Assembly: GCA_016181175.1 (NCBI GenBank)
Contig: JACOZV010000002.1
Span: 64,115 to 128,114, forward strand
Direction: 5' to 3'
DNA length: 64,000 bases
From: Candidatus Yanofskybacteria bacterium
GTDB taxonomy: Bacteria > Patescibacteriota > Minisyncoccia > 2-02-FULL-40-12 > IGHO2-01-FULL-4-A
In this document: positions 720 through 54,210 of the stretch, piece after piece
Layout of the letters: each line of letters starts with the position of its first letter
Numbering within the stretch: position 1 is the first letter of the stretch
Program-made: the position numbers and the translations under genes
The notes under the pieces: generated by a model
What the model was told of the DNA's origin: nothing
The model's database searches: none
What the model saw: the letters and a program-made list of their open reading frames with translations, nothing else

Positions 720-831
720 CCCGTTAGAAGTCGCTGCTACGCAGCCTTACGCATAAGTTACAGCTGCACAATAAGACTTTTGATTATTTATTAGTTATGA
801 CTGCAAACCCGTTAGGGCGACTTCTAACGGG
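720..831. mobile_element. MITE-like element, copy 1 (112 bp, perfect 15-bp TIR CCCGTTAGAAGTCGC; TSD TTCAT)
   Basis: Left end cccgttagaagtcgc (720-734) is the exact reverse complement of the right end gcgacttctaacggg (817-831). It is flanked by TTCAT on both sides (715-719 and 833-837). The interior is ~70% identical to copy 5 (54098-54210). It sits between rpmJ and infA. Confidence 0.75.
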
Positions 832-852
832 ATTCATATTTGTGCTTATGGC

Positions 853-1062
853 TTACCTGCGGTAGATGATTCTTCCTTTTGTCCCATCGGGGCTTAGTTC
901 CAGTGTTACTTTATCGCCAATTATCACCTTTATATGGTTCATTCTCATTTTTCCCGCTAAATACGCCAAAACTTCTCTACCATCGTTGAGTTTGACCTTA
1001 AATTTTGTGTCGGGCAAGGCATCTATAACAATGCCTTCTTCTTTTAATTTTTGATCACTCAA
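853..1062 (-). CDS. infA: translation initiation factor IF-1
   Basis: 69-aa ORF MSDQKLKEEGIVIDALPDTKFKVKLNDGREVLAYLAGKMRMNHIKVIIGDKVTLELSPDGTKGRI, an S1-like fold that closely matches bacterial IF-1. Confidence 0.95.
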   Translation of the reverse strand: MSDQKLKEEGIVIDALPDTKFKVKLNDGREVLAYLAGKMRMNHIKVIIGDKVTLELSPDGTKGRIIYRR

Positions 1063-1171
1063 GCTTTTATTTAAATAAAGAAAAAACCAGATTTCACTTG
1101 GAAATCAGGCTATTCTTAACCTTATTCCATTGTTTTTAAGTCTAGCAGAACGCTATTTGCATGTCAATCCC

Positions 1172-2869
1172 CTATTCTTTTTCTATGCTTATTTTAATTC
1201 TTGTCTGATCCTTCGGGATGCTTTTGACCCAAAATGGCGAAAGAGTAATACGGGCTGATTCAACTTCTTTCATGTTTTTAAAGTAATCACGTATGGCATC
1301 TTCTTTCATTCCCTGTATATCTTTGAGTATTTTTTCTTGATCTACTTTAACGGCTGCTTGTCCGGAAACTTGCATGTCAAAAGTCATTGTTGTGTTGTCA
1401 GTATTATTTTGGGGGTTGGTAGAGTTAAGTGTCAGGTTTTTTTCCACTAGTTCCAAATTACCCTTTTGGGAGATATAGTTTTTAATTAATTCTAAAATGT
1501 CAGATTCGCGAAAAGCTAGAGTACTAGCTGTCCCGCCAACTGTTATTTGGAAGTTTTCTACCGCCTCACCAACTTTGGCATTTGATATTGGCGGATCAAA
1601 TTTTATCATGATTGAATCCAGGATTTTTAGTTCGCCTGCCTGATCATTGAGTGATTGTAATATCTTTTCTTTAAGTTTTGCAGTAACAGCTTCCTGTCCC
1701 TTGATAAAATCTTCTTCGGTAACCACTTTTGAGAGTCCGATGACGCCGCCAGTCATTGGTTTTTCAGATTCAGCGTAGAAATCTTCAAACTTCGGTGTTC
1801 CTTCTAGACCGGGCACTGAAAAGGTGGTAGGAGCGATATTATATTCCGGTCCCGGCCTATCGGCATAAACTGCCGATTCAATCACGCCTTCTGTTGCTAC
1901 GGTGCCCGTCTTGGTCGCGGCTGGTACGGTGATAGTCTGGGGGATTCTGAAAATCAAGCCATCTTGTGATTTAAACCTGGTAGTGGCAACAAGACGTTGG
2001 GTCGTGAACCCCTTGTTGTATATAGTGATTTTACCGCTTGCTTTTTGGGCCACATCTTTCTGGCCGGTAGCCTCGAATGTACCGGACTCGCTGTCCTTAT
2101 AGCCAAAGCGCTGGCCGGGTATGCGATTAAAATCAAAATCTACTGATGTTGCCAAACTTGAGGCCGAAATCTTGAGTGGAAAGTTAAGGTCTTGTTTCTG
2201 GGGGCTGATTATTATTCGAGCGCTGCCAAGCGTAGTGTAGAGAACAAGAATTAAAACCAAAACCGCTCCGCTGGCTAGAAAAAATGGAGTTTTCCTGAAA
2301 ATTCCCGAAGCTTTTATTTTTTTTATTCGAGCAGTGTCTTGATTTGTCCGCGCCCAAACGCTTGTTATGTCGCCGGCAATTTTTTCTTCCTTAATTCCTC
2401 TTGTAATCTCCACGTCAAACGGGTTTGTTGTTTCTTCTTTAATTTTTATTGGCCGTTTTGTTTCATACTCTGGTCTTACAATATCTTTTATTACTTTGGG
2501 CATGGTTGTTGTTTTAACGGCTGCCAATTGAATGTCTGGCTCCGATTCAGCGTATTGTTCTACTGTGGTTTGTTCTGATGTACTTATCACTGTTGGACTG
2601 TCGTGTTTTTTGATTTCCGGAGACTTAATCAGCTCTATCTTATTTTGTGAAGCAAATTGTTCAACGATAGGATCGCTGGTCATTATGCTGACATGTTTGC
2701 CGGATGAATCCGCCTCGCGCTTGATGGCGGTGAAATGCTGGGATTGTCTTGCAAGCTTGGAACCCTTGGGAAAAATAAAAATTACCTCTTCAGACTCTGT
2801 ATTTTTGAACAAATCAAAAACCTCGTCAAAATTTTCATTTTTGAGGACATGGATTATTTTGGTTGACAT
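1172..2869 (-). CDS. hypothetical protein with a central transmembrane segment (565 aa)
   Basis: Long ORF. A hydrophobic helix FFLASGAVLVLILVLYTTLG lies mid-protein. No recognisable catalytic motif. It is upstream of infA on the same strand. Confidence 0.6.
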   Translation of the reverse strand: MSTKIIHVLKNENFDEVFDLFKNTESEEVIFIFPKGSKLARQSQHFTAIKREADSSGKHVSIMTSDPIVEQFASQNKIELIKSPEIKKHDSPTVISTSEQTTVEQYAESEPDIQLAAVKTTTMPKVIKDIVRPEYETKRPIKIKEETTNPFDVEITRGIKEEKIAGDITSVWARTNQDTARIKKIKASGIFRKTPFFLASGAVLVLILVLYTTLGSARIIISPQKQDLNFPLKISASSLATSVDFDFNRIPGQRFGYKDSESGTFEATGQKDVAQKASGKITIYNKGFTTQRLVATTRFKSQDGLIFRIPQTITVPAATKTGTVATEGVIESAVYADRPGPEYNIAPTTFSVPGLEGTPKFEDFYAESEKPMTGGVIGLSKVVTEEDFIKGQEAVTAKLKEKILQSLNDQAGELKILDSIMIKFDPPISNAKVGEAVENFQITVGGTASTLAFRESDILELIKNYISQKGNLELVEKNLTLNSTNPQNNTDNTTMTFDMQVSGQAAVKVDQEKILKDIQGMKEDAIRDYFKNMKEVESARITLSPFWVKSIPKDQTRIKISIEKE

Positions 2870-2929
2870 TAGCCAACCTAATTATAACACTTTTAATATA
2901 AACAATAAAAAAAACCGCGTATATGCGGT

Positions 2930-3526
2930 TTAACTTTGTCCAATCAGTTTTTGGTCGGGTTTTTCCATATCGGAAATATCTTGCCTTAAAACTCCAACTG
3001 TTTTTCGGAATTCATAAAACGTTAGAGGCTCGTTGTGAAAAGATGTCCATCTTAAAAAGCATGACTTAATACGAATATAAATGAAAAAACAAACAAGGAA
3101 ACCCATTGTTCCTGCAAAAAATTTAAAACCAAGATACCCAAGAGTATAAGTAGTATCACTTACTAACATCAATGAGCGTATAAATGACCAAAGAGAGATA
3201 GCCGATAACCCCAAGAGATTTAATTTTACAAAGTAGCGTAATGCCATGCTTAAAAGCAAAGATTTAAGAGTCATTTTATACACCTGCAGCTTCGTATTTT
3301 TGTTTTCCACAATGTCTTGGATTCTATAACTGGCTATGCCCAGTTTATTTACCAAAAAAAGTTCTACGGTACGTTTGGCTATTCCTCTGATATGCTCTAA
3401 CTTAGTTTGTCTTTTTTGTTCCAATTCCGATTTTTGTTTTTCTAATTCAAGCCATTTTTTCTCTCGGGCTTCCATTAATGCCAAAGCCAACGGGTCCTGC
3501 TTAAACAAGCTTGTTGAGTTTTTCAT
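2930..3526 (-). CDS. hypothetical coiled-coil/membrane protein (paralogue of 3545-4147)
   Basis: 198 aa. The N-terminus MKNSTSLFKQDPLALALMEAREKKWLELEKQKSELEQKRQ parallels the neighbouring gene's MENQTGLIGQDVLATAIQEAEQEKIKKLELKKQEKKEELEQ. Hydrophobic C-terminal segments. Last gene of the same-strand operon. Confidence 0.55.
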   Translation of the reverse strand: MKNSTSLFKQDPLALALMEAREKKWLELEKQKSELEQKRQTKLEHIRGIAKRTVELFLVNKLGIASYRIQDIVENKNTKLQVYKMTLKSLLLSMALRYFVKLNLLGLSAISLWSFIRSLMLVSDTTYTLGYLGFKFFAGTMGFLVCFFIYIRIKSCFLRWTSFHNEPLTFYEFRKTVGVLRQDISDMEKPDQKLIGQS

Positions 3527-3544
3527 ATGATCCCCCTTTTATCC

Positions 3545-4147
3545 TTATTCAACAAGTTTCTGGCACTTGACTTCCAATTCGGCAATATTTTTTATACAGC
3601 AAGCGATAACTTTAGTCACGAGTTTGCCTAGCGGGGGTATGTTTGGATAAGAGTTCTTGAACAAAGTTTGTAAAACTTTACCTATTGAGTCTGTATTACA
3701 AACCCAATCATAAGCCACGGTAAGCATCGTCATGATTGTAAATGACATAAGCGGAATAACCGGGCTGATTAATCTGGATATTGCCATCCATCCGAGTAAG
3801 AAAGTTAGAGGGAGGGTTAACAAGGTAAATGGTTTTGTCATCCAATATATTCTTCTCCATTTTTTTAGGTCCATGATGACAGAACGCAATACTTTGATTT
3901 TTGAGTGAGTATCGTTCAGTACCCTATCAATATGTTGTGGTGTCATGTCTGCAAGTTCTTTTAAGTATTGCCTGCACAACTGATCAGGCAGGCTATTTAA
4001 ATGGATAATATAATTTTTTTCTTGTTGTTCAAGCTCCTCTTTTTTTTCTTGCTTTTTTAACTCTAATTTTTTGATTTTTTCTTGTTCGGCTTCTTGTATG
4101 GCAGTGGCCAATACGTCTTGACCGATTAATCCAGTTTGATTTTCCAT
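3545..4147 (-). CDS. hypothetical coiled-coil/membrane protein (paralogue of 2930-3526)
   Basis: 200 aa. Charged coiled-coil N-terminus, then hydrophobic helices (FTLLTLPLTFLLGWMAISRLISPVIPLMSFTIMTMLTVAY). Tandem paralogue. Confidence 0.55.
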   Translation of the reverse strand: MENQTGLIGQDVLATAIQEAEQEKIKKLELKKQEKKEELEQQEKNYIIHLNSLPDQLCRQYLKELADMTPQHIDRVLNDTHSKIKVLRSVIMDLKKWRRIYWMTKPFTLLTLPLTFLLGWMAISRLISPVIPLMSFTIMTMLTVAYDWVCNTDSIGKVLQTLFKNSYPNIPPLGKLVTKVIACCIKNIAELEVKCQKLVE

Positions 4148-4161
4148 TTTCCCCTCCTTTT

Positions 4162-4947
4162 CTATGCAATTTGTAATGAGTTAAGCATGCTCTGGAATTT
4201 TTCCAGATTGAAAAGTTCTGCTTTTTCTGTTTTGACTTCCTTGGTTTCCAGCTCGCCATCCTTGACCCGCAAAAGCCACTCTCGGCTTAAAATAATCATC
4301 AGACCGTCAATGACTTTGCTTGGCCGTCTGAAGTCAAAATAATCCCGCAGTTCTTGATGGCTGATATCGTTTGACTCAACCCCGATCAACTGCCGGAAAC
4401 TTAGCCAGCCGTCCTCGGTTTTCAAAATGTGATTCAGTTTTATGTCCATCCTGACGGTTGTCAATTTGGACATTGACCCGCAACAGCGAATACTAGTTTC
4501 TTGAACCAGGTGTTCCCAATGAGCAAATGAGCGCAGTACCGTCATCAATGTTGCATCGCGCGGTTTGAAAATTTCCGCGTATTTCTGCAAGTCGGCAATC
4601 AATGTGGGATGTGAAGGAAAACAAGTCGTTTCATCCCAGGCAGTCGGACAACTTATGAGTTCGTCATTGAGATGGCTAATTAATTTATGTTGAGCTTCAA
4701 GAGCAATGGCTACAACATTAAGAAAATCAGAATTTTTGGTCAAAAGTTTCGAGTTGCCGATGGCAATTTTTGCGCGTATGGAATTGATTAGTAGTTGTAA
4801 CTTCTGCAGGCAGTCCGCATAGTCAATAAATATTGTGTTACCATGTTTCGTAAGCGCAAGTTCCTGGTTCACTACTGTCATTCTTGCTCCCAAATTTTCA
4901 AGGATCTTAGGTTGGTTTAACATAGCACAGATAATTGTTTCCGTCAA
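4162..4947 (-). CDS. hypothetical protein (261 aa)
   Basis: ORF in the tightly spaced same-strand operon (15-nt gap to the downstream gene). No motif recognised. Confidence 0.5.
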   Translation of the reverse strand: MTETIICAMLNQPKILENLGARMTVVNQELALTKHGNTIFIDYADCLQKLQLLINSIRAKIAIGNSKLLTKNSDFLNVVAIALEAQHKLISHLNDELISCPTAWDETTCFPSHPTLIADLQKYAEIFKPRDATLMTVLRSFAHWEHLVQETSIRCCGSMSKLTTVRMDIKLNHILKTEDGWLSFRQLIGVESNDISHQELRDYFDFRRPSKVIDGLMIILSREWLLRVKDGELETKEVKTEKAELFNLEKFQSMLNSLQIA

Positions 4948-4991
4948 ATTAAAAACTCTGGATTTCCAGAGTTTAAGTAAAAGAACAAAAA

Positions 4992-5975: not shown

Positions 5976-5989
5976 GGTTTCCTCCTTTT

Positions 5990-18942: not shown

Positions 18943-19004
18943 GATTTTGGTCGAATTAAAACAGATTATATATAGTCTATTTGAACAAAATACAAATTAT
19001 GAAT

Positions 19005-19114
19005 CCCGTTAGAAACAGCCCTAGCGGGTTCATAAAGATAAAGTATATTTTTAACAAGCCAGTACGGTAAAATATAAGCCAAACTTATGTTTTACTGTTA
19101 CTGTCTCTAACGGG
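19005..19114. mobile_element. MITE-like element, copy 2 (110 bp; TSD ATGAA)
   Basis: Ends cccgttagaaacag / ctgtctctaacggg. The interior is related to copy 4 (shared agccctaNcgggttcat and aaaacttatgt blocks). Flanks are ATGAA(t) and ATGAA. The right end abuts the ATG of the DUF1059 ORF. Confidence 0.7.
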
Positions 19115-19312
19115 ATGAAAACTTTAACATGCAAGGATTTAGATCCTACTTTGGCTTGTGATTATAAAGCCACGGGTATGGATGAAACAGAGGTCATGCA
19201 AAACATGATGACTCATGCCAGAGAAGCTCACGCCGACAAAGTCGGCGGCCTGACAGATGAGCAAATGACTGATATGATGACGCCGCACATCAAAGATGAA
19301 GCTGCGATGTAA
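19115..19312 (+). CDS. DUF1059-family small protein
   Basis: MKTLTCKDLDPTLACDYKATGMDETEVMQNMMTHAREAHA matches the MKxFxCxD...C DUF1059 pattern. Confidence 0.65.
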   Translation: MKTLTCKDLDPTLACDYKATGMDETEVMQNMMTHAREAHADKVGGLTDEQMTDMMTPHIKDEAAM

Positions 19313-19360
19313 TCTCAAATCAAAACCCGCCGATGAGGCGGGTTTTGATTTGAGATTACA
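19307..19360. terminator. bidirectional terminator within a 23-bp perfect inverted repeat
   Basis: gtaatctcaaatcaaaacccgcc gatgag ggcgggttttgatttgagattac. A GC core stem with A and T flanks. It serves the convergent genes on either side. Confidence 0.75.
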
Positions 19361-20636
19361 AACTATTACCAATATCTGCAAAAAGATTTAAATTTTTGAT
19401 TGCCTGGAATTTTTTTAAATAATTTAAGGTTTCCAGCCTGAATATTTTCGTGGTTTGCGGAAAATCTAATTGTCTGCTTAACCATGCCAGGCCATATTTA
19501 TTAACCGATTTAATTACTCTGCCTGGCCCGCCATTGTAAGTAGCGGCTAACATTTCTTCGGTAATGCCAAAGGATTTTATAACATCCTGTCTTGTTGTTT
19601 TATCTGCTATTTCTTTCCTGTGGCTGTCAAAAAAAAGTACCATTGCTTTGATTGCGTTAATATGATTCGCCATACCCGAATTATAGTTTTTGATTAATTT
19701 TGCTTTTGGATATCTACTTACCATGTTGTCATATGTTGATTTAATAAACTGGGCCAATCCGGATGCTCCGGCCGGAGAGCCGGTATAACGGTAAGCAAGC
19801 TCTTGGTTGGCTCCGATTACTGCAAGTACGCGCTCGCTTAATTCCTGCCCGCCGTCTGTAGCACTTGAAAAAGAATCGGGGTCAACATGCTCAACAACGA
19901 TGATGTTTCTTACTAAGTCTTTACTTATGTTTTTCGTTACTAATGTTCCGGGTAGGAATCGAGACGTAACTTTATCTGTTTCTAATTCTGCGAAAGCTTG
20001 GTCAATATTTTTCTCGAGGTATATTTTACCAGTCTCAATAGTTTCAACTATATGAAGCCGTTTGGAATAAGGGGCGTAAACTATATCCGTGTACTGACTT
20101 TTTGATTTTTCCGGCAAACTAGCGAGATATTTGCTAGGAAAAAGGTATTTATTGGCTACCACAATTAATTTTGGATGATCCGGTATCTCATAAAAAGTGT
20201 TAAAACTGTTCCACCATTTTACGTTGATGTTGATTTTTTTATCGTTATTAATCGGCGCAATGTAGCACGTCACGCAGGGTTCAAGCGTGATAACTCCGGT
20301 TTTTTTATAATTTTTAATATCTTGCTCCCTGACCCATACTCTTTGTTCAAAAATATCGCCGCTTTCGGTGTCTAATAGCGCAAACGCTATTTGTTTTCGT
20401 ACCAGTTCGCTGGTTGGTTTTTTATTTTTGGTTTCAAAAATAAGAGGCGGCGACTTCCTCAATAAATCCATTCCTTCTTGGATTTTTTGTAAAATAGAAA
20501 AACGGGGCGCATGACCAGCAGGAAGTATTACGGCCGGTTTGTTTATAACCGTTATTTCTCCGGCATAATCAAAATTTATCCAGCCAAAAAAACCTGAAAG
20601 CATTACTGCCGCTACTAAAAAATAAAAATACCTCAT
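19356..20636 (-). CDS. secreted protein with lytic-transglycosylase-like (SLT) motif
   Basis: N-terminal signal/TM. The C-terminal region GSPAGASGLAQFIKSTY resembles the SLT catalytic-site region (ES...GAxGLMQ). Confidence 0.5.
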   Translation of the reverse strand: MRYFYFLVAAVMLSGFFGWINFDYAGEITVINKPAVILPAGHAPRFSILQKIQEGMDLLRKSPPLIFETKNKKPTSELVRKQIAFALLDTESGDIFEQRVWVREQDIKNYKKTGVITLEPCVTCYIAPINNDKKININVKWWNSFNTFYEIPDHPKLIVVANKYLFPSKYLASLPEKSKSQYTDIVYAPYSKRLHIVETIETGKIYLEKNIDQAFAELETDKVTSRFLPGTLVTKNISKDLVRNIIVVEHVDPDSFSSATDGGQELSERVLAVIGANQELAYRYTGSPAGASGLAQFIKSTYDNMVSRYPKAKLIKNYNSGMANHINAIKAMVLFFDSHRKEIADKTTRQDVIKSFGITEEMLAATYNGGPGRVIKSVNKYGLAWLSRQLDFPQTTKIFRLETLNYLKKFQAIKNLNLFADIGNSL

Positions 20637-21946
20637 AAATTTTGTTCAATAATTGCAGCTTTTCTTTGGACGCTATTAGCATAATTGACACAACCTGATT
20701 TTGTGCTTGCACTATTTCCGCAGTAATATCTTTTTGATGCGGCTATTTCACCGGCCCGAGTTTTACTGTCAGCTCCGTCGCGAGCAAGCTTGGCTGCCGC
20801 CGCAACAAATGCGTCTTCTATGCTCCAGGGATTCGCAGGATTATGACCGGTCAGTCTGGATACTTCTTCCCTATATCCCATCCAGGTAGACGGAATAAAC
20901 TGGGCCGGACCCATGGCGCCTCCCCAACTAGAGCCGCATGAAATAGGGGTTTGAAAAGGATCTTTACCTAGTTCCGTGGTAATATTTAGAAATAAAGCAA
21001 GGTCTCTTGTTGGATGTATGCCCTTAGTGTAGATTTGGCCATTTGTAATCCTGCGCGTAGAACCGCTTGTCTTGTCGATTATATAACATTTCCCGACATT
21101 GCCTCCTAGCACGCTTTCCTGTTCAAGTTCAGCAAGTAAAAAAGCTGGACGGATGCCTGCTCCTATGGCGGCAAGATTACCATATTTGATTGCTTCTTCT
21201 ACTGAAATGCCATTTTGTATCAAGTATCCAATCTGGTCTTTTATTGCTTGAATATCTTTTTGGGATTTTTTCACTAATTCCTGGTATTTTGACTCCTGAC
21301 CCTTGGTATCTTTTAAGAGCTTGTTTTTTTGATTTTTTGTTTGATCTAGAGTATTCTTTTCCGCCTGTTCAAGATTTTTTAATTTTTCAAGATCATTTTT
21401 TTTACTGAGCAAAGCTTCCTCTTTTTGTTCCAGGTCAGCTTTGAGGTCTTTGGTGCCGACGATTGTTGTCCGTAAATTATTTTGAGTGTCCTGTAGATTT
21501 TTTAAATTATCAAAAAAATTGGAGAGCGTCGCGTGCTTGAGAAGCACCTCGGTGAGATTTTCCTGGTCAGCCTGATAAAGTATTCTGATATATTTAGCCA
21601 GAGCAATTTTGTGAGTATTAAGTTTGCCTTGAGCAATTTCAATTTGTTCCTGTGTGTTGGCGGTTTCTATGCCGGTCTGCACAATGGCTATTCCAAGGCT
21701 TTTGATTTCAAGTTGGACCTTGTTTATTTGGGCGTTAAGACTGCTTATCTCACCGGACAAAGTTCTTGCCTTCTGACTGTTTGCGTCAATCTGTCGCTGG
21801 TATTCGTCAATCTGGCGCTGTATTTCTTCAATTTGTCGATTTCGCGCGTCAATTTCTTCCTGTAAGTCGGCGCTGGTATCTGAAAATGGCCAAAAAATGG
21901 CCAATAGCAACATGATAACTGACAAAATAATAACCCTTTGGGTCAT
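20633..21946 (-). CDS. coiled-coil protein with C-terminal lytic murein transglycosylase domain
   Basis: Signal peptide, ~230-aa heptad-rich coiled coil, then LAELEQESVLGG...GPAQFIPSTW, the MltB/SLT_2 family signature. Confidence 0.65.
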   Translation of the reverse strand: MTQRVIILSVIMLLLAIFWPFSDTSADLQEEIDARNRQIEEIQRQIDEYQRQIDANSQKARTLSGEISSLNAQINKVQLEIKSLGIAIVQTGIETANTQEQIEIAQGKLNTHKIALAKYIRILYQADQENLTEVLLKHATLSNFFDNLKNLQDTQNNLRTTIVGTKDLKADLEQKEEALLSKKNDLEKLKNLEQAEKNTLDQTKNQKNKLLKDTKGQESKYQELVKKSQKDIQAIKDQIGYLIQNGISVEEAIKYGNLAAIGAGIRPAFLLAELEQESVLGGNVGKCYIIDKTSGSTRRITNGQIYTKGIHPTRDLALFLNITTELGKDPFQTPISCGSSWGGAMGPAQFIPSTWMGYREEVSRLTGHNPANPWSIEDAFVAAAAKLARDGADSKTRAGEIAASKRYYCGNSASTKSGCVNYANSVQRKAAIIEQNL

Positions 21947-22462: not shown

Positions 22463-23842
22463 GTGATTATAAAAATAAAAAAATATCTTTTTGGATCAAT
22501 TTTCCGACGCGGCGCAACACTTTTGACGTTCTTAACCTTGGGCAGTTACGTCCTCGGATTGTTGCGGGACATATTGTTTGCAAGAGTTTTTGGCGCTTCG
22601 CGCTTACTGGACGTTTATAACGCGGCTTTTATTATTCCCGACCTTCTTCTAAATATATTTGTTGCCGGTGCCTTGACGGCGGCATTTGTTCCCATATTCA
22701 CCCACCTTTATGCCCACAATGAGGATGCTGAAGCTGAAAAAGTCGCGACCACAATGCTGGTTGCCGCGCCGTTCATTCTCTTGATTTTAGCCATTCCGGT
22801 TTTTATTTTTATGCCGCGTTTGGCAGACATCATTACTCCCGGATTCGCTTTTGAGGATAAAGAATTGTTAGTGTTAATGGCACGTCTTTTATTGCTGTCA
22901 CCTATAATTTTTGCCGTTTCCAATACGTTGGGCAATATTCTCATTTCTTTTGAAAGATTTTGGGGTTATGGGCTAGCGCCAATTTTTTATAACCTGGGTA
23001 TTATTATCGGCATTCCGCTTGCCAAAATGTTCGGGCCACTAGGTTTAATTGAAGGCGTAATTATAGGAGCATTATTACATCTTGCTGTTCGTTGGACCGA
23101 CATCGCGAAGAGCCGTTTTCAGTGGAGATTTACGACTCGCCCCGCACCACAATCTTCATGGATTTCAAGATTGTGGTGCGGGGTACAATGGCGCCATCCT
23201 GAATTCCGTAAAATTCTCAAGCTTATGATTCCACGCATGGCCGGTCAGCCGATTGAGCAAGTTACTTTTTTCATTTTTACAAATATAGCTTCAACATTGG
23301 CCGTAGGTTCAATTGTGGTGTTGAGTTTTGCCCGTAATTTTCAAAGCGTTCCAGTTAGCTTGTTTGGCATAGCATTTTCTACTGCTGTTTTTTCTTCTCT
23401 TGCCAAAAAAGCCGCCCTTGGAGATCGGGTCGGCTTTTTATACCATTTACGCGAAACTGCTAAAGTTTTGGGGATCATGACTGGCTTATCCGTTTTATTT
23501 TTCTTTTTCTTTGGGGAATGGGTAGTGCGCCTACTTCTTGGCGGCGGTCGTTTCCTTGAATCAGATGTGTTACGCACCGGCCAGCTCCTTGCCATCTTTG
23601 CTTTCGCAATCCCAGCCGAGAGCTTCATGCACCTCATCGCCCGCTCATTTTACGCGCTTAAGGATACCTGGACTCCGCTTTTTGTTACCCTGCCGGGCTT
23701 GGCCATAATTGCTATCTTGGCTAAATTACTGCTTCCCGTTATGTCACTTAATGCATTGCCGTTTAGCTATTTTATAGTGCTTACTGTTGAGGTGGGGCTA
23801 TTAACTTTGATACTCTTACAGAAACTGCGCAGATTAAACTGA
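22463..23842 (+). CDS. murJ: lipid II flippase MurJ
   Basis: GATLLTFLTLGSYVLGLLRDILFARVFGASRLLDVYNAAFIIPDLLLNIFVAGALTAAFVP is the MurJ/MviN N-terminal signature. Multi-TM. Confidence 0.85.
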   Translation: MIIKIKKYLFGSIFRRGATLLTFLTLGSYVLGLLRDILFARVFGASRLLDVYNAAFIIPDLLLNIFVAGALTAAFVPIFTHLYAHNEDAEAEKVATTMLVAAPFILLILAIPVFIFMPRLADIITPGFAFEDKELLVLMARLLLLSPIIFAVSNTLGNILISFERFWGYGLAPIFYNLGIIIGIPLAKMFGPLGLIEGVIIGALLHLAVRWTDIAKSRFQWRFTTRPAPQSSWISRLWCGVQWRHPEFRKILKLMIPRMAGQPIEQVTFFIFTNIASTLAVGSIVVLSFARNFQSVPVSLFGIAFSTAVFSSLAKKAALGDRVGFLYHLRETAKVLGIMTGLSVLFFFFFGEWVVRLLLGGGRFLESDVLRTGQLLAIFAFAIPAESFMHLIARSFYALKDTWTPLFVTLPGLAIIAILAKLLLPVMSLNALPFSYFIVLTVEVGLLTLILLQKLRRLN

Positions 23843-25663: not shown

Positions 25664-27298
<1,635 letters not shown>

Positions 27299-27371
27299 TT
27301 AATTTCCAATTTTTAATTTTTAAACATTAGAAATTATTTATAAAATTATAAAATTAAAAATTATAAAAAAA

Positions 27372-27659
27372 TTATTCTATAATCGCTAATATGTTTTCTT
27401 CTTTTGCTATCAAGTATTCCTTGCTGTCAATTTTAATCTCGTCGGGTCCGTATTTGGTAAATAAAACTTTGTCGCCTTTTTTGACGTTCATTTGAATTTT
27501 TTTGCCACTCTCATCCATGCGTCCCGATCCGACTGCAATTATTCGGCCTTTTTCCGGTCGTTCCTTGTCTACGGTTTCAGGTAAAATAATCCCGCCCTTC
27601 TTTTTTTCTTCATAAAGCGGTTCTATTAGAACGCGGTCTCCCAATGGTTTAATTTTCAT
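27372..27659 (-). CDS. groS: co-chaperonin GroES
   Basis: MKIKPLGDRVLIEP...GGIILPETV. 95 aa. Confidence 0.95.
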   Translation of the reverse strand: MKIKPLGDRVLIEPLYEEKKKGGIILPETVDKERPEKGRIIAVGSGRMDESGKKIQMNVKKGDKVLFTKYGPDEIKIDSKEYLIAKEENILAIIE

Positions 27660-33626: not shown

Positions 33627-34808
33627 TTACACCACCCTCTGGAATTTCCAGAATATCAATCTGGTCAATATCGCAAGGGCGTAAAATACAAGCGAAACAA
33701 CCAGCGGCAAACGATAGATATGCTGTTCAACGGTAAGACTTTTTACCGCGATTACTGCGGGGTTGAGCCGGTCGAGACGCTGACGGATCTGGCCAAGAGA
33801 CGGTCGGTTTGCGGCTATAAAATACTCGCCGCCGTATTGTCTTATCTGCCTTAACAGTTGTTCCGGTAGTTTTACCTGCGGTGCGTCATCGCTTCCGTGG
33901 ATTTTTCTTTCCGCGTCTTTGTCGGGGTCTATATAAACAAGAAACGGAACAATGCCTCTCTTTGCCAGCTCTTTAAGCTGTGGCTCCGGGTCTCGGCTGG
34001 AGGCGCCATCCGTAGCTATTATAATTGATCTTCTTTTGATTGAAGGATTTTTCTTAATTTCCTGGGTAATTTTAGGGTCGCCCTTTTCGTCAAAAAGTTT
34101 ACTTCCGGCTTCAAGACCCAGAAAAAGATCAGACTCGCCGCCGAATGGTTCTGCCATGAAATCTTTTACGATGAACATCCCTTTGTAGAAATCGATTCTT
34201 GGCGTATCCGGATCGGCAATAACCAAAGGACCGTTTTCAACGCTGAAAAGAAGACTGTCGGTATCTGTTGTAAAGTCCGCTATTCTGTAAGGATTGGAGG
34301 CGTAAACGATAAAGGCTGCCCTGTCATTTTTGTCCCCGCGTTCGGCAATTAATTTCAAAATGAAGTCGCGCACGATTTCAGCCCTGCTTATCTGCTGATT
34401 TTTAAACTTGAAACCCATTGAAACAGAACTATCCTCAAGATAAATTATTTCCCTAGATTGAGTAGATTTTACCTCTCTGCTCAAAAGAACATAAGGATCC
34501 GCAATGGCCAGCAGGAGACAACTCGATGCCAGTAGAATAAATGTTGTCGGGCTAAGGTCCAATACTCGGTGCCAAAATCCAGGTTTGTCACGCGACTCAA
34601 AACGATATCCAGAATGTTCGTAATAACTTTTTTCCCGCCTTTGACGAAAGTAGGGCCACGATATTTTTAACAAAAGAGCCGCTCCCAGTAATATCGCGGC
34701 CCAAACTGTAAAATTCGCCTGCTTGAACTGAACAACAGTCCAGTCGGTATGTAAAAAATCGTAAAAATTAACCCCAATCAATTCACGGAGTTCGTAATAA
34801 AAATTCAT
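33627..34808 (-). CDS. vWA-domain membrane protein (BatB-like)
   Basis: TM segments at both ends. IYLEDSSVSMGF and IIATDGASSRD are MIDAS-type motifs. ATG at 34808 overlaps the upstream TGA (ATGA). The ORF-track start at 34838 is an alternative. Confidence 0.65.
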   Translation of the reverse strand: MNFYYELRELIGVNFYDFLHTDWTVVQFKQANFTVWAAILLGAALLLKISWPYFRQRREKSYYEHSGYRFESRDKPGFWHRVLDLSPTTFILLASSCLLLAIADPYVLLSREVKSTQSREIIYLEDSSVSMGFKFKNQQISRAEIVRDFILKLIAERGDKNDRAAFIVYASNPYRIADFTTDTDSLLFSVENGPLVIADPDTPRIDFYKGMFIVKDFMAEPFGGESDLFLGLEAGSKLFDEKGDPKITQEIKKNPSIKRRSIIIATDGASSRDPEPQLKELAKRGIVPFLVYIDPDKDAERKIHGSDDAPQVKLPEQLLRQIRQYGGEYFIAANRPSLGQIRQRLDRLNPAVIAVKSLTVEQHIYRLPLVVSLVFYALAILTRLIFWKFQRVV

Positions 34809-35911
34809 TTGCCCCTCCGGAATAATTTTGTAAGCCATTCAGCCAATTCCCGCTTTCTTTCGTGTAACTTATACCTGAAAATCCTGACTGGCCTCAATTC
34901 ATTGGCCCCATATTTCAATAATTTTATTTCTTGTTCTAAAAATTTTACATTAGTTTTTTTATGGGTGAACAACATGTCATCGTAAATTTGAAGGTTTAAG
35001 CTCAATAAACGCAGCAACTCATTTACCCTGCTTGAGGGTTCCATTTTAAAAATTTTGGCAATTACTTCTTTGGTCGTGTCGGCTTCTGATAGGTCTGGGA
35101 TGGATGACAACAATAATCGTCGCAGTTCGTTATACAGATGTCCTATTGCTTCTTCTGTTTTATCAGAACTTGAATCTGTTTTTACATAAACCAGTAACCT
35201 GTCAAGGATATTGCAAAATTGTTTTAATGCTTCTTTGGGAACAAGCCGTTCTTCATGTGCGGCGATTTCTACGCCAAGATGCGCAGTTTTGGATATGCCG
35301 GTTTTCCTGGCGGCGTAAACAATCGGTTTTCTGAACAATAAGAATAAAACCGTGCTGAACATAAAAGCTAACCCGCCCATTAAACCTTTAAATATATTCT
35401 CCTGTCTTTTAAAAGATCCGAAATCAATTTGGTCCATAATGTCATTGGCGTCCTTAATCAGAACGCTGTCGTAGCGCAGTTTAACGCCGGGTGTTTTAAA
35501 TTCTTTTGTTTCCAAATTTTCCAGTGTTTTGCCGGCCTCTTCCTTTACATAAAAAAATGTTTGTTCCGGAATGATCATCTCGCCTTTTTTTTCACCAATG
35601 TGTCTAAGATAATAAATTAAATCCACGTAATTTTCTTTTTTGTATTTGCGCTGATTGCGCAATTCGAGGTTGTAACCCTTTGCCGGATCAAGCTCAAAGG
35701 GACTGAAAGACATATTTTCAGGTTTGGCTAGATCGAATAAAGGCCGATAACCGTCCAGCCAACGGACTGTGTAGATTAACTGTATTTCTTGCCAGTTTGT
35801 AAAAGCCGTCATTGAAACCCGCGGAGGGTCAATAATGACCGGCATTTCTTCTTGGGCCAATAATGCTCTGGCGAATAACATGAATGATAAAATCATTACT
35901 TTTCTGAACAT
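34805..35911 (-). CDS. signal-peptide/TM hypothetical protein (BatD-like position)
   Basis: Real start chosen at MFRKVMILSFMLFARALLAQ, a signal peptide. The longer ORF-track N-terminus would translate through MITE copy 3. Internal TM LMGGLAFMFSTVLFLLF. Confidence 0.55.
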   Translation of the reverse strand: MFRKVMILSFMLFARALLAQEEMPVIIDPPRVSMTAFTNWQEIQLIYTVRWLDGYRPLFDLAKPENMSFSPFELDPAKGYNLELRNQRKYKKENYVDLIYYLRHIGEKKGEMIIPEQTFFYVKEEAGKTLENLETKEFKTPGVKLRYDSVLIKDANDIMDQIDFGSFKRQENIFKGLMGGLAFMFSTVLFLLFRKPIVYAARKTGISKTAHLGVEIAAHEERLVPKEALKQFCNILDRLLVYVKTDSSSDKTEEAIGHLYNELRRLLLSSIPDLSEADTTKEVIAKIFKMEPSSRVNELLRLLSLNLQIYDDMLFTHKKTNVKFLEQEIKLLKYGANELRPVRIFRYKLHERKRELAEWLTKLFRRGK

Positions 35912-35977
35912 CCTAATCCCCAATTTGTCAAAGTTCTTTGTTGCAACAAGGATAAATAAAATATGTTTAACCGTCAA

Positions 35978-36048
35978 CCCCGTTAGAAGTCTCACTCGTG
36001 CCGAAAGCACGAGTCTGTTTGACCTCGGCGAGGCTACTTCTAACGGGG
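35978..36048. mobile_element. MITE-like element, copy 3 (short, 71 bp; TSD TCAA)
   Basis: Perfect 13-bp TIR ccccgttagaagt / acttctaacgggg. Internal hairpin ctcactcgtgc-cgaaa-gcacgagtc. Flanked by TCAA on both sides. Lies inside the Bat-like operon between the DUF58 gene and the next gene. Confidence 0.7.
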
Positions 36049-36087
36049 TCAATCCTTCTCAAATTAAAAAGTCGAGGTAAACCTCGA

Positions 36088-39140: not shown

Positions 39141-40376
39141 CTATTCATTTAAGACCGACTCAATTTTTGGCAACGCCCAATCTATTTCTTCTTTGGTAAC
39201 TATCAATGGCGGGCTGAATCTCAACGTATGTTCGTGGGCGATACCGCACAAAATTCTTTTCTCTAGTAGTCTGCCGCGATAATAATCAGTTTTAAGTAAC
39301 GGATGCAGTTCCACTCCTATCAAAAGGCCTGATCCCCTGACTTCTTTTATAGTGTGACTTTTAAGTTTTTCAAGTTTTCTTAGAAAATATTCTCCTACTT
39401 CCCATGCTTTTCTGACAAAAAAGGGGTTCTCTTTTAGTATATCAAGGACTTCACAAGCTACGGCACAAGCCAGAGGGTTGCCGCCAAAAGTACTTCCATG
39501 ACTGCCGGGGTCAAGAACACTCATCACATCTTTGCGTCCAACCACTGCAGAAATAGGCAAAAGGCCGCCACCAAGCGCTTTGCCGAGAATTAACAGGTCT
39601 GGCTTTGCTTCAAAAGCCTGATGGGCAAACATCATTCCTGTTCTGCCAAACCCGGTTTGAATTTCATCCAATACAAAAAGTGTGTTGTTTTTTTTGCATA
39701 CACGTTCCGCTTGCGTTAAATAATCGTCAGGCGGAATATTGATGCCGCCCTCGCCCTGAATCGGTTCCACTATAAAGGCGGCTGTGTTTTTGTTTATGAC
39801 ACTTTCCAAAGCATTAATATTTCCAAAAGGAATGCTTAAGCATCCTGGCAATAATGGCCCGAAATCCTTGCGATAAGCTTCTTCTGTTGACAGAGATAAA
39901 ACACCCTGGGTCCGGCCGTGAAAATTATTATAGCAGGAGATGATTCCAGCAGAATTGCGGGGTACGCCTTTGGTTCTATATGCCCACCTCTTGGCAATTT
40001 TCATCGCAGTTTCTACCGCTTCAGCGCCGGTATTCATTGCTAAAACTTTATCCATTGAACAAAATTCTGCCAGCTTGCTGCAAAACTTAGTGTATGGTTC
40101 AGTATAATAACTGCCGGTAACTAATGCTAGTTTTTGAGCTTGATTGATGAGGACGGACACAACGCGATCATAATATTCTCCGCTTCTGCCGAAGATAACG
40201 GCGGAATAACCAGCGATCATGTCAAGAAAATCAGTTTGATTTTCGTCGTTTCCCAGCCGACAACCCTTTCCTCTGTCCAAAACCAAAGGATAGCGTGTGT
40301 AATGATGTGCGCTGAATCTTTCCGTTAATTCAATGGTCTCCTCATTTGTCAAAGAACGTTCCATTTTTATCCTCAC
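39141..40376 (-). CDS. class-III PLP-dependent aminotransferase (ornithine/acetylornithine aminotransferase-like)
   Basis: DEIQTGFGRTG and LGKALGGG (PLP lysine). VLDRGKG start typical of ornithine aminotransferases. Confidence 0.8.
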   Translation of the reverse strand: MRIKMERSLTNEETIELTERFSAHHYTRYPLVLDRGKGCRLGNDENQTDFLDMIAGYSAVIFGRSGEYYDRVVSVLINQAQKLALVTGSYYTEPYTKFCSKLAEFCSMDKVLAMNTGAEAVETAMKIAKRWAYRTKGVPRNSAGIISCYNNFHGRTQGVLSLSTEEAYRKDFGPLLPGCLSIPFGNINALESVINKNTAAFIVEPIQGEGGINIPPDDYLTQAERVCKKNNTLFVLDEIQTGFGRTGMMFAHQAFEAKPDLLILGKALGGGLLPISAVVGRKDVMSVLDPGSHGSTFGGNPLACAVACEVLDILKENPFFVRKAWEVGEYFLRKLEKLKSHTIKEVRGSGLLIGVELHPLLKTDYYRGRLLEKRILCGIAHEHTLRFSPPLIVTKEEIDWALPKIESVLNE

Positions 40377-40441
40377 ATCCCCATAAATAACTATCTAAAA
40401 ATACGTTTGAAAAATACCAAGAAATATAGTAATGTGTCAAT

Positions 40442-40550
40442 CCCGTTAGAAGTAGCCCTAACGGGTTCATGAACCAAAGTTGATGCTTAATAATACTAGT
40501 GCAGTGACCATAAGTAAAACTTATGTGTTGCCGTTACTACTTCTAACGGG
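40442..40550. mobile_element. MITE-like element, copy 4 (109 bp; TSD TCAA(T/G))
   Basis: Ends cccgttagaagtagcc / ctacttctaacggg. Interior related to copy 2. Flanks TCAAT and TCAAG. Divergent intergenic region. Confidence 0.7.
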
Positions 40551-40656
40551 ATCAAGGTGGATCCCGAACGAAACAGCCTTTGCTGACAATAAAATAGGGT
40601 TACAGTGGCTATCTAAACGGGGATTAATAAACCCGACTTGTTAATAAGGCACGGAA

Positions 40657-48834: not shown

Positions 48835-48836
48835 AC

Positions 48837-51080: not shown

Positions 51081-51082
51081 AT

Positions 51083-52180
51083 ATGCTATCTATTGGAATA
51101 GTCGGCCTTCCAAACGTGGGCAAAAGCACACTCTTTAAGGCGCTGACTAAAAAACAGGTTGACATACATAACTACCCTTTTACCACAATTGATCCAAACG
51201 TGGGTGTGGTTGGCGTACCCGATGAACGACTTGAATTATTGGCTAAAATGTCCCATTCAGCAAAAATCGTGCCGACAGCAATTGAGTTCATAGATATCGC
51301 CGGACTTGTAAAAGGCGCAGCTGCCGGAGAAGGCTTAGGCAACAAGTTCCTTGCCAATATACGCGAAGTAGACGCCATTGCCGAAGTGGTAAGGGTTTTT
51401 GAAGATGAAAAAATAACCCATGTTCACAAAAAAATAGATCCGACTAACGATATAGAAATTATAAATACCGAACTAATGCTTGCCGACTTGGAAACGGTCA
51501 ATAAGCGTCTGGACAAAACAAAAACAAACGCCCCTGAAACGGTTATTGAAACATCGGCTTTGCGAAAATTAAAATTAGGCCTGGAATCGGGAATATTGGC
51601 AGTAAATATCACGCTTGAAGATAAAGAAAAAGAAACAGCCCGCGAGCTAACTCTGCTGACAAACAAAAAATTTATTTATGTGCTTAATGCTTCTGAAAAA
51701 CAACTGAAGAACGGGTGGCAACCATCCTTCGTTAAAACTTCGGAGGGCAAGCCCGACGAAAAACTCAAAAAAGTAATAGGCGATAACGATTACGTGGTAT
51801 TGACCAGCACTTTTGAGTTATTGCTTTCAGAATCCGCACCTGAAGAACAAAAAATATTTTTAGAAGAAGTTGGGCTAAAAGAAAGCCGCCTGGATGAGTT
51901 GATTAAAAATGCCTACCACACTCTTGGATTAATTACTTTTTTAACAACCGGCGAAGATGAGACACGTGCCTGGACTTGCCAAGCCGGCACCGCGATACCA
52001 CAGGCGGCACGGGCAATCCATACCGACTTTGAGCAATTATTTATCCGAGCCGATGTAATAAACTGGCAAAATTTGCTTGCCGCAGGTTCATGGAGTAACG
52101 CACGCCAAACCGGTAAAATTCATACTGTCGGCAGGGATTACATTATTCAAGATGGCGATGTCGTAGAGATAAAAATCTGA
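51083..52180 (+). CDS. ychF: ribosome-binding ATPase YchF
   Basis: [19 protein letters not shown]...[13 protein letters not shown] and a C-terminal TGS region. Start taken at MLSIG, after the murC stop. Confidence 0.9.
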
Positions 52181-52211
52181 AACAATACCAAACTTTACGA
52201 ACCCCTCATCA

Positions 52212-52270
52212 AAATCATCCCCCGCTAGGGGGATTTTAATTAATAAAAAAGCCGATTATTTCGGCTAGAT
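52212..52270. terminator. two back-to-back terminator hairpins (convergent genes)
   Basis: atcccccgctagggggatttt follows ychF. aaaaagccgattatttcggct, read on the other strand, follows the DUF218 gene. Confidence 0.65.
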
Positions 52271-52843
52271 ACTATTGGAACGATGGATGCGGTAACGATG
52301 TTCGCGCTCTGCCAGACCAAGAAATGGAAATTTGAGAGCTAGTTTATTATAAATTAAATTACGTGCTTGTTTAAATGTATCAGCACGTTCCCAGTTGGCC
52401 GTTTCTACAGTTATATCATCAATGCTATCTACAAAACTCATCAAGAAATATCGAGCCAGCATTATGACATTCGCTGCTCGAGTTGCCTCACAAAAAATCG
52501 TAATCCTAATAGTGTCTGGGAAGCCATGAAAATCCATATGCTCTGATGCTTTTTGAATATTTTTAAAAGTAGTGTAGGAATTTGTTTCGAGCATTACTAC
52601 TTCTAAACCGATTTTACTTTTAACATAATCGTGCATTAAATCAGCTTCAGAAACATTAGGAGAAGTTTTCTTTTGAGTATAACCACCACAGAAAACTATG
52701 GCATAAGGTTTATTTTTTTGAATAAATCTTACAATACGATCAAGATATGATCTTAATGGAGTATCTAAATGACAACCATAACCACAAATGACAACAACAT
52801 GCTTCTTTCCGGTCATTCTGGGCCTCCAATTGTGAAAAAACAC
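52265..52843 (-). CDS. DUF218 (YdcF/SanA-like) domain protein
   Basis: KHVVVICGYGCHLD...YAIVFCGGYT has the DUF218 layout. The start is likely M10 (52816). Confidence 0.6.
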   Translation of the reverse strand: MFFHNWRPRMTGKKHVVVICGYGCHLDTPLRSYLDRIVRFIQKNKPYAIVFCGGYTQKKTSPNVSEADLMHDYVKSKIGLEVVMLETNSYTTFKNIQKASEHMDFHGFPDTIRITIFCEATRAANVIMLARYFLMSFVDSIDDITVETANWERADTFKQARNLIYNKLALKFPFLGLAEREHRYRIHRSNSI

Positions 52844-53183
52844 TAACTAAATCATTATACGGTAATCTCCTAGATTTGTAAATAGCCATGCCATCAAATT
52901 TTTTATTTTTTGTTCCTGGAAATATAAGCGAGCTATAGTGCCTTTTGTAAATCAGCCAAGCGAAACCCCTGTCTAAGAAATCATTCATGGCAGGCTTTGG
53001 TAACAAATAAGGCGAGCGAGCAGCGGAAAGCCGAGACCGCAAACCCGTAAGCCCGGCCCTAAAGCGGGGTTAGTTTGCGCTTGCGCAAACTAAGGTTGAG
53101 GAAAGCTCGGAAGGATTCCGCGTTGCGAGCGAGTTATATTTGTCAAAGCCGAATGTTGATTTCGTGATAGGGGTTGAGCGGGA

Positions 53184-54044
53184 TTAGATTTTTCCCACGG
53201 ACCCGAAGAGTTCCAGATATTTTTTAATCATTCTCTTCATCTCTTCATAAGATGGCTTGAGGTATTTATAGGGCGTGGTTTGGGTGGGTTCTTTTTCAAG
53301 TTCTTCATGCAGGGTGTCACGATAAGCTACGCGAAGTTCAGTGTTAATATGAACATTGGCGATGCCATTTTGTATCGCCATTTTTATTTCTTCAACAGGT
53401 AAACCAGAGGCGCCATGCAATACCAGCGGTACTTCTGGAACGACTTGAGTAATTTTTTTAAGATGTTCTATGTCCAAATGCTCTTCCTGCTCTGTAACAA
53501 TGCCGTGAATATTGCCAAAAACTACGGCTAGACGATCAACTCCAGTAAGTGTAACAAAATCCTGCGCTTGTTCGGGTTGTGTATAATCGAAAGGACTTAT
53601 TTCAATCGCGGTTTGTACTTCAGAGCTTCCCCGCAGATAGCCAAGCTCGCCCTCCACCGCAATTTCGGAATTGATTGATTTGGCGTATTCTTTAACTTTT
53701 TTAGTAAGCTCTATGTTTTCTTCAAGTTTCAGCTTGGATGCATCTATTAATACCGTATCGTAACCACTGTCAATGGCGGCTTTGGCAGTTTCCCAGCTTT
53801 TATGATGGTCAGAGTTCAAAAAAACCGCGTGGCCTTCTTTCTGATACGATTCCACTAAAGCCACAGCCTGTTCTCGTCCAATAAAATCAGCTTCGCCCTC
53901 TGAAGTTCCGACCATAATCGGTGATTTCATTTCCGTCGCTGCCTCAACAAACGCCTTAAGCTGATCCGCCGTGGAAAAATTAAAATGCCCCAGCGCCCAC
54001 TGGTCTGCCATTGCTTCTTGAAAATATTGTTTTAGAGTCTTCAT
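53184..54044 (-). CDS. fba: class II fructose-bisphosphate aldolase
   Basis: ALGHFNF...DHHKSWE...GELGYLRGSSE is the class II aldolase signature. 286 aa. Confidence 0.85.
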   Translation of the reverse strand: MKTLKQYFQEAMADQWALGHFNFSTADQLKAFVEAATEMKSPIMVGTSEGEADFIGREQAVALVESYQKEGHAVFLNSDHHKSWETAKAAIDSGYDTVLIDASKLKLEENIELTKKVKEYAKSINSEIAVEGELGYLRGSSEVQTAIEISPFDYTQPEQAQDFVTLTGVDRLAVVFGNIHGIVTEQEEHLDIEHLKKITQVVPEVPLVLHGASGLPVEEIKMAIQNGIANVHINTELRVAYRDTLHEELEKEPTQTTPYKYLKPSYEEMKRMIKKYLELFGSVGKI

Positions 54045-54097
54045 GTATTTTATATTGCTTACTCCTCAGGGCAAGTCCTTTGTTTTTCGTCATTCAT

Positions 54098-54210
54098 CCC
54101 GTTAGAAGTCGCTGCTATGCAGCTTTGCACACAAATTACAATTTACACAACAAAACTTTAAATTATTTGCTAGCTACGACCGCGAACCCGTCAGGGCGAC
54201 TTCTAACGGG
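54098..54210. mobile_element. MITE-like element, copy 5 (113 bp; same subfamily as copy 1)
   Basis: Perfect 15-bp TIR cccgttagaagtcgc (54098-54112) / gcgacttctaacggg (54196-54210). Interior ~70% identical to copy 1. TTCAT immediately to the left. It encodes the last 12 codons of the upstream 428-aa ORF. Confidence 0.75.

Follow-up and report, generated by a model that had tools for sequence, protein, structure and literature searches.

The six copies and their surroundings

The stretch of DNA analysed here (the window) comprises 64,000 nt of contig JACOZV010000002.1 from the genome of Candidatus Yanofskybacteria bacterium (assembly GCA_016181175.1, positions 64,115–128,114 of the forward strand). 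It has a GC content of about 40% and encodes RNase Y, RNase J, five tRNAs and many proteins without a Pfam family. Spaced along it are six short repeats with inverted termini, which an earlier note, made from the sequence alone, had described as a new family of miniature mobile elements. The results presented below support the view that the copies are insertions of mobile DNA, and they probably represent a MITE (miniature inverted-repeat transposable element) family belonging to the Candidate Phyla Radiation (CPR)/Patescibacteria. The termini have the form Y-CCCGTTAGAAG...CTTCTAACGGG-R, the outermost bases (Y and R) being a variable outer pair that is usually T..A or C..G. The six copies, and the two genes with a start codon regenerated by the end of a copy, are as follows:

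nt 719–832, minus strand: copy 1, long form; outer pair T..A; TTCA duplication at nt 715–718 and 833–836
nt 606–719, minus strand: rpmJ (ribosomal protein L36), start codon regenerated by the end of copy 1; matches positions 1–38 of the Pfam L36 profile from residue 1
nt 13258–13336, no strand assigned: copy 2, 79 nt; degenerate ends CCCATTAGAGAG...CTCTCTAACGGG; no duplication
nt 19004–19115, plus strand: copy 3, long form with imperfect termini; outer pair T..A; TGAA duplication at nt 19000–19003 and 19116–19119
nt 19115–19312, plus strand: DUF1059 gene, start codon regenerated by the end of copy 3; Pfam match from residue 1
nt 35978–36048, no strand assigned: copy 4; outer pair C..G; TCAA duplication at nt 35974–35977 and 36049–36052
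nt 40441–40551, plus strand: copy 5, long form; outer pair T..A; TCAA duplication at nt 40437–40440 and 40552–40555
nt 54097–54211, minus strand: copy 6, long form; outer pair T..A; no duplication (TTCA on one side, TAAA on the other)

Copy 1 lies between infA and rpmJ, and its last base on the minus strand is the A of the rpmJ start codon. In the same manner, the last base of copy 3 is the A in the ATG of the DUF1059 gene. Copies 4 and 5 are found at promoters: copy 4 is inserted at the initial four bases of a −35 hexamer, TTGACG (nt 35972–35977, minus strand), that belongs to the gene at nt 34805–35911, and copy 5 sits on the −35 hexamer TTGACA (nt 40435–40440, minus strand) of an aminotransferase gene (nt 39141–40376). 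The remaining copies are in other spacers. Copy 2 is 15 nt past the stop codon of an HU-type gene (nt 13351–13632, minus strand) and before a terminator hairpin (nt 13205–13240), and the left end of copy 6 lies upstream of an aldolase gene (nt 53184–54044), about 22 nt from its promoter. The earlier statement that no copy is inside a coding sequence was nearly right; it needs to be qualified in that an open reading frame (ORF, nt 54174–55460) takes its final 12 codons and its stop codon from the right end of copy 6, and that copies 1 and 3 touch start codons.

The termini occur far more often than expected by chance, and the six elements are where the earlier note had placed them. Allowing no more than one mismatch, CCCGTTAGAAG was found nine times in the window (0.84 expected) and none of 100 shuffled sequences gave nine occurrences. 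A scan for exact paired termini returned three long copies (none expected), and a looser scan for paired termini returned these six loci and no others. The inverted-repeat arms are 17 nt (100% matched) in copy 1, 17 nt (88%) in copy 2, 25 nt (80%) in copy 3, 14 nt (100%) in copy 4, 16 nt (100%) in copy 5 and 21 nt (95%) in copy 6, and a strong hairpin is predicted for all six (z scores of −3.6 to −7.5 relative to shuffled sequence). A degenerate candidate for a seventh copy, beside copy 5 (nt 40562–40624), showed no fold (z score of −0.1) and was excluded from the count.

Alignment of the interiors groups copy 1 with copy 6 (77% identity) and copy 3 with copy 5 (72% identity), the second pair being of the same type as the first in the opposite orientation. 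The subfamilies proposed previously (copies 1 and 5, copies 2 and 4) were not recovered; copies 2 and 4 are short forms with 60% identity and little in common beyond their ends. Of the flanking direct repeats of 4–5 bp that had been reported, 4-bp duplications of the form TNNA are present at copies 1, 3, 4 and 5 and none is seen at copies 2 and 6, and some of the duplications had been paired with the wrong copies.

Structure of the family and its target duplication

About 250 copies of the family were obtained from public genomes and metagenomes (duplications were scored in 130 genome-set and 119 metagenome-set copies), all of which were collected by exact 11-nt termini. In 128 of the 130 genome-set copies, the bases immediately preceding CCCG and following CGGG pair with each other, so that the terminal inverted repeat is 12 bp long. 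The inverted repeats, described earlier as 11–15 bp, thus extend over 12 bp including the variable outer pair (T..A in 73 and C..G in 53 of the 130). Copies are 57–170 nt in length, with a variable interior of about 35–150 nt, and their coding content is restricted to small ORFs of 11–41 codons, leaving no capacity for a transposase.

A direct repeat of 4 nt flanks 77 of the 130 copies exactly, with T in the first position in 109 and A in the last position in 112. The independent metagenome set gave a similar picture (exact in 75 of 119), and the target duplication can be described as TNNA, of 4 bp and sometimes 5 bp, exact in about 60% of the ~250 copies. The middle two bases are free, and the preference for a TCA(A/T)-like target suggested by the window copies was not upheld. 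Duplications of 5 bp or 6 bp, and a Xer/dif-like site of 11-6-11 arrangement at tandem junctions, were also considered and rejected, as just 16 of 130 copies had a full 6-nt repeat and no arm-like conservation was seen in the flanks.

Evidence of insertion

Syntenic contigs from two relatives, with MoxR proteins 81% (L121) and 67% (L122) identical to that of the window, provided the comparison of empty sites that the earlier note had called for. At the position of copy 4, L121 has the terminator, a T-run, one GTTGAC and then flanking sequence that can be aligned to the window, so that the element and the second TTGA are both absent. At the position of copy 5, both L121 and L122 carry a single TTGACA, a 17-nt spacer, TAATTT and then alignable flank. 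In each case a single TTGA is found where the window has two. MnmA relatives, examined for the sites of copies 2 and 3, were only about 70% identical and too distant to be informative. A further case of presence and absence is secG, which in a related metagenome-assembled genome (MAG; L037) has a copy exactly at its ATG and in the window has none.

Copies within single MAGs are up to 89–100% identical. One copy lies within another transposon's gene, an IS110-family (DEDD_Tnp_IS110) transposase gene (copy at L089:772–885, ORF at L089:859–1548, minus strand), and is flanked by a TTTA duplication. The MAG in question is labelled Syntrophobacter, and an identical 128-nt stretch occurs on another of its contigs (L010). 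The family may reach beyond the CPR, or the contigs may be mis-binned. In other instances the same gene junction is occupied in different species (L024:6564–6677 and L035:6918–7030; L036:3399–3500 and L107:3393–3496) by copies with diverged interiors and intact ends, which were either retained for a long time or inserted repeatedly at one start codon.

The empty sites, the presence and absence of a copy at secG, the target duplications and the near-identical copies support the reading of the repeats as mobile MITEs. The earlier note had also named a contrary pattern, namely syntenic copies without duplications that preserve a single compensated fold; what is seen, empty sites and TNNA duplications, favours mobility.

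Position at start codons and −35 boxes

Insertion sites were counted for the 245 unique copies with enough flanking sequence. Among copies with the T..A outer pair, 96 of 118 lie directly against an ATG or GTG followed by at least 35 open codons; among C..G copies, 10 of 117 do so. The left flank of the start-codon copies usually repeats the start (e.g. ATGAAT-element-ATGAAA), and in many of them a TATAAT box is present 5–10 nt upstream, which indicates leaderless genes. Other start-codon copies lie between the genes of operons, as does copy 1 between infA and rpmJ. As a control, the non-coding ATGNA sites of the window were inspected, and only 16 of 67 proved to be start codons, so that a sequence preference combined with a purge from coding regions does not explain the bias. 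The C..G copies often read outward as G/TTGACA-17 nt-TATAAT (the slash marking the end of the element), and a promoter-like pattern that begins exactly at the duplication was found in 11 of 52 C..G copies compared with 0.9% of all TNNA sites. In the window, copies 1 and 3 are of the start-codon type and copies 4 and 5 of the −35 type.

Gene starts in the window are themselves mixed, some having a strong Shine-Dalgarno sequence and others a TATAAT 6–10 nt before the ATG (e.g. nt 9537–10031, 20633–21946 and 59406–60380), the latter arrangement suggesting that leaderless transcripts are frequent in this genome.

Two asymmetric subfamilies allow the orientation of start-codon copies to be read from their interior, and in both it is fixed relative to the downstream gene (30 to 0 and 7 to 0). 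The gene-proximal repeat then reads C TTC TAA CGGG ATG, with the TAA lying 4 nt before the ATG of the gene. An ATG-started ORF of at least 10 codons that ends at this TAA, or at an ATGA overlap with the gene (end positions of −7 or +1), was present in 38 of 70 copies in the sense direction and in 14 of 70 in the antisense direction (p = 5e-5). Judging by this arrangement, the small ORF is probably a termination-restart device, by which ribosomes would melt the hairpin and reach the rebuilt ATG. Neither of the two start-codon copies of the window counts as a small-ORF copy, as copy 1 lacks an ORF with an ATG start in the relevant frame and copy 3 is outside the tested set. Among oriented copies read by eye, neither an outward promoter nor a Shine-Dalgarno sequence was consistently present at the gene-proximal end.

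Short forms within genes

The terminal repeat is open in two reading frames, and the third frame holds TAG and TAA. Of the 76 copies of 72 nt or less, 62 have a length divisible by three (p = 7e-18). In 40 copies an ORF continues through the element, with 40 or more open codons to either side of it, and 37 of these 40 have a length that is a multiple of three. The in-gene copies are read as PVRS...TSNG in 26 cases and as PLEV...LLTG in 14. Host proteins confirmed by Pfam are SecA (at two positions, on two contigs), GyrA, CTP synthase, a MiaB-like radical-SAM enzyme, a pyridine-nucleotide-disulphide oxidoreductase with iron-sulfur domains and an O-antigen-ligase-like protein. When the two SecA proteins are aligned, one of the inserts falls opposite a gap in its counterpart.

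This in-gene type is not represented among the six copies of the window. The subfamily of copy 4, however, also occurs inside SecA and at start codons elsewhere. Its core between the termini is 69 nt long, stop-free and a multiple of three, and a spurious ORF (nt 34805–36052) consequently runs through copy 4.

A tandem arrangement was seen at L185:11109–11240, where two 63-nt copies share a GTCAAC linker and are both in frame within an ORF of 1283 residues that has no Pfam family.

Distribution

When 185,579 species-representative genomes were scanned for the two termini at a distance of 65–95 nt, at least 120 loci were returned, and a metagenome scan for short forms again returned at least 120. 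The groups among the matches listed include Paceibacterota, Nomura-, Kaiser-, Zambryski-, Yanofsky-, Jorgensen-, Lipton-, Moran-, Falkow-, Kerfeld-, Komeili-, Portnoy-, Azam-, Staskawicz-, Gribaldo- and Levybacteria, the Kazan division and many MAGs labelled Saccharibacteria. About ten of the MAGs among these listed matches bear non-CPR labels, which may be binning errors. The GC content of the hosts ranges from 34% to 58%, with the same termini being found across many phyla. The family spans the CPR/Patescibacteria superphylum and is not local to the genome of the window. It is nearly absent from viral contigs (no match and one match, respectively, in two scans), a result that speaks against a phage origin.

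Searches of Rfam (Rfam 15) with the window and eight loci, at both gathering and relaxed thresholds, placed no family on any element and returned only tRNAs and rRNA. No description of the element was found in the literature searched on MITEs and inverted repeats of CPR/Patescibacteria or by its terminal sequence, and none of the MITEs covered in a review of prokaryotic elements from 2024 comes from the CPR (PMC10969869). The family appears to be undescribed in Rfam 15 and in the literature searched.

Search for a mobilising enzyme

Pfam searches of about 55 ORFs of the window detected no transposase or recombinase domain, bearing out the earlier observation that the window has no cognate transposase. 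Clustering of 637 ORFs neighbouring the collected copies revealed no recurrent linked gene. Neighbours of the most recent copies, as identified by Pfam, are housekeeping genes and one disrupted IS110-family gene, and termini that occur singly in the loci represent either chance matches or small copies that have decayed.

Interpretation

Taken together, the results make it likely that the six repeats represent a DNA transposon that is non-autonomous, forms hairpins (a MITE) and is widespread in the CPR/Patescibacteria. Such an element would be moved in trans by a cut-and-paste transposase, perhaps one of piggyBac/IS1380-like type. At a start codon, the terminal A of the element and a TGNA duplication rebuild the ATG, and at a −35 box the duplication rebuilds the first four bases of the hexamer. 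In start-codon copies the small ORF probably lets ribosomes open the hairpin and restart on the gene. The family has most of the properties by which MITEs are recognised, being short (under about 500 bp), bounded by terminal inverted repeats, flanked by a duplication with corresponding empty sites, and present in multiple copies per genome that bear marks of recent spread; the remaining one, an autonomous partner with the same ends, was detected neither in the window nor in sequence flanking 120 genome loci.

Several observations weigh against this interpretation or limit it. The full-length, transposase-bearing element that the earlier note had proposed to look for was encountered neither in the window nor around the 120 genome loci, where about 0.9 Mb of flanking sequence contained no autonomous partner or transposase. 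None was present in 16 kb of the MAG represented by L032 and L039, in which copies are 89–95% identical, and the MAG of L089, which has identical copies, carries only the disrupted IS110-family gene, itself interrupted by a copy. The class of the enzyme is accordingly a guess, for which the CCC ends and a 4-bp T..A-type duplication provide a lead, by analogy, to the piggyBac/IS1380 type. The outer pair matches the base beside the duplication (A/TNNA/T for T..A copies and G/TNNA/C for C..G copies), and the same interior subfamily is found with both outer pairs; a simple cut-and-paste model does not explain either feature. The end base may guide the choice of target, or the pattern may arise after insertion. 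Either targeting or selection could lie behind the bias to start codons. Only about half of the start-codon copies have the small ORF, and members of one subfamily are not independent of each other. Lastly, collection by exact termini means that conservation of the ends is not judgeable from the set, and cannot serve as evidence of selection, and that diverged relatives were missed.

A broader proposal, regarded as possible but tentative, is that this superphylum-wide element is built to be harmless in compact genomes, acting as a mobile 5′-leader and translational-coupling cassette and as a generator of protein insertions, with targets matched to its own end base by a piggyBac-like, overhang-templated or new mechanism. 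The two open frames of the ends would allow short forms to reside inside essential proteins, and the third frame would supply stops. The terminal base and the duplication would rebuild starts and −35 boxes, and the small ORF of long forms would pass ribosomes on to the gene.

Other explanations were weighed against the MITE interpretation. Copies of mobile origin might now be kept as working parts, their 12-bp ends either binding a conserved protein (a domesticated transposase or global regulator) or forming RNase III substrates, and so controlling the adjacent promoter or 5′ leader. This is compatible with a MITE, as the two explanations overlap rather than exclude each other, and it would account for the exact positions relative to the −35 box and start codon, the fixed orientation, the same termini across many phyla of 34% to 58% GC, retention at the same junction in different species (L024/L035 and L036/L107) and the lack of a transposase near any copy. 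It is nevertheless unlikely, since the closest relatives without copies 4 and 5 keep the same promoters, showing that these two copies are dispensable. Moreover, a promoter role makes no sense for copies in coding regions and 3′ spacers, no binding protein is known, and the conservation of the termini is inflated by the method of collection. A smaller probability is given to a conserved structured RNA (a cis-regulatory leader or small RNA gene) in place of mobile DNA. The strong hairpins (z scores of −3.6 to −7.5) and the many copies in 5′ leaders are in keeping with it, as is one GC-rich subfamily with compensatory changes in 3 of 27 pairs of its inner hairpins. Against it stand the target duplications and empty sites, the lack of an Rfam match at either threshold, folding energies that are alike for the sense and antisense strands (p = 0.28), and the occurrence of copies in both orientations in spacers, in coding regions and in the gene of another transposon.

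Repetitive extragenic palindrome (REP) doublets, or REPINs, which are spread by a single-copy REP-associated tyrosine transposase (RAYT, of the HUH/Y1 type) acting on single-stranded hairpins, have a similar architecture of two inverted ends about 60–110 nt apart that fold into one long hairpin. Some ends of the CPR element are themselves small palindromes, and the failure to find an ordinary transposase would also fit. Target duplications are, however, not expected from HUH/Y1 transposition (IS200/IS605, REP/RAYT), whereas the 4-bp duplications described here are confirmed by empty sites; in addition, the window has no Y1 transposase domain and the ends, as read from their sequence, lack the 5′ GTAG of REPs. 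A REPIN-like origin is therefore considered highly improbable.

Integron attC sites were also considered and rejected. The core-like motifs are in reversed order (GTTAGAA...TTCTAAC compared with RYYYAAC...GTTRRRY), and the copies are 5–18 kb apart among housekeeping genes, without arrays and with no integrase found in the window.

Other features of the window

Seven successive minus-strand ORFs (565, 198, 200, 261, 327, 150 and 162 aa) between nt 1172 and 7459 lack any match in Pfam. A cluster of four tRNA genes (nt 9478–10776) includes an ORF (nt 9537–10031) with a weak match to HNH_3 (E = 9e-5) that overlaps the 3′ part of tRNA-His by 15 nt (region nt 9478–10031). Between the DUF1059 gene and the stop codon of the gene at nt 19356–20636 there is a perfect 24-nt inverted repeat with a 5-nt loop (nt 19308–19360), probably a two-way terminator, which gave weak, spurious microRNA matches in the relaxed Rfam scan. 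Another perfect inverted repeat, of 17 nt (CCCCGCACCACAATCTT / AAGATTGTGGTGCGGGG, nt 23140–23183), is located within the MurJ coding region (nt 22463–23842). An AT-only, near-palindromic tract of low complexity (nt 27293–27376) lies directly upstream of a chaperonin gene (nt 25664–27289), and a tandem repeat of CTACTTT with three to four units (nt 59353–59400) lies directly upstream of the ORF at nt 58900–59352.

Significance and comparison with known systems

A large share of bacterial diversity belongs to the CPR/Patescibacteria, whose genomes are tiny and densely packed and are considered poor in mobile elements. A palindromic element common to them would mark gene flow among these lineages. 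It is also a source of assembly breaks and gene-calling errors, including false N-terminal extensions and false ORFs such as that at nt 34805–36052. Its in-frame copies would add a second, independent example of selfish DNA within protein-coding genes, a phenomenon for which Rickettsia is the best-known case to date, and base-exact docking at start codons in a fixed orientation, together with a coupled small ORF, offers a testable handle on leaderless and coupled translation in organisms that are just starting to be genetically tractable.

Rickettsia palindromic elements (RPEs) are short palindromes without a known transposase that occur in spacers and also, with unusual frequency, in frame within unrelated housekeeping genes, to which they add a conserved peptide (PMC10969869). 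The CPR element is likewise a short palindrome with no known transposase, and it shares with them its presence in spacers and in frame inside unrelated genes and the encoding of a conserved peptide. It differs in that its hosts form a superphylum rather than a single alphaproteobacterial genus, in GC content, in having clear 12-bp repeats, a TNNA duplication and confirmed empty sites, and in that most of its long forms lie outside genes, docked at starts or −35 boxes. It is presumably unrelated to RPEs in sequence.

The Correia elements duplicate TA and are not known outside Neisseria. Also known as CREE or NEMIS, they are MITEs of ~100–200 bp that lie mostly just upstream of genes, with which they are co-transcribed, and their hairpin ends can affect expression by way of promoters, IHF sites and RNase III cleavage (PMC10969869). 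The CPR element is likewise a MITE found mostly just upstream of genes, but that review does not attribute to Correia elements any base-exact docking at start codons, fixed orientation or small ORF coupled to the gene (PMC10969869). Unlike them, the CPR element has no evident outward promoter.

A duplication of 4–5 bp is typical of the IS1380 family. This prokaryotic family has been paired with piggyBac (PMC5718144), which duplicates the 4-bp target TTAA (rarely variants such as TCAA or TAAA) and has inverted repeats beginning with CCCTT, CCCTC or CCCAT (PMC10813416). The CPR element similarly has a 4-bp duplication of the T..A type and ends beginning with CCCG, but unlike piggyBac its middle two target bases are free. 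As no transposase of this kind is linked to the CPR ends, the relationship is one of resemblance and not of membership.

With REPINs the CPR element has in common the pairs of inverted short repeats, a hairpin of ~100 nt, abundance in spacers and non-autonomy. In contrast to REPINs, it has target duplications, lacks the GTAG motif, has no RAYT gene that could be found, and is present also in coding regions and at start codons. Behaviours known from MITEs, RPEs and Correia elements are joined in this family to three features that are unusual in combination: occurrence throughout a superphylum, docking at start codons and −35 boxes that is exact to the base and fixed in orientation, and frame-neutral ends.

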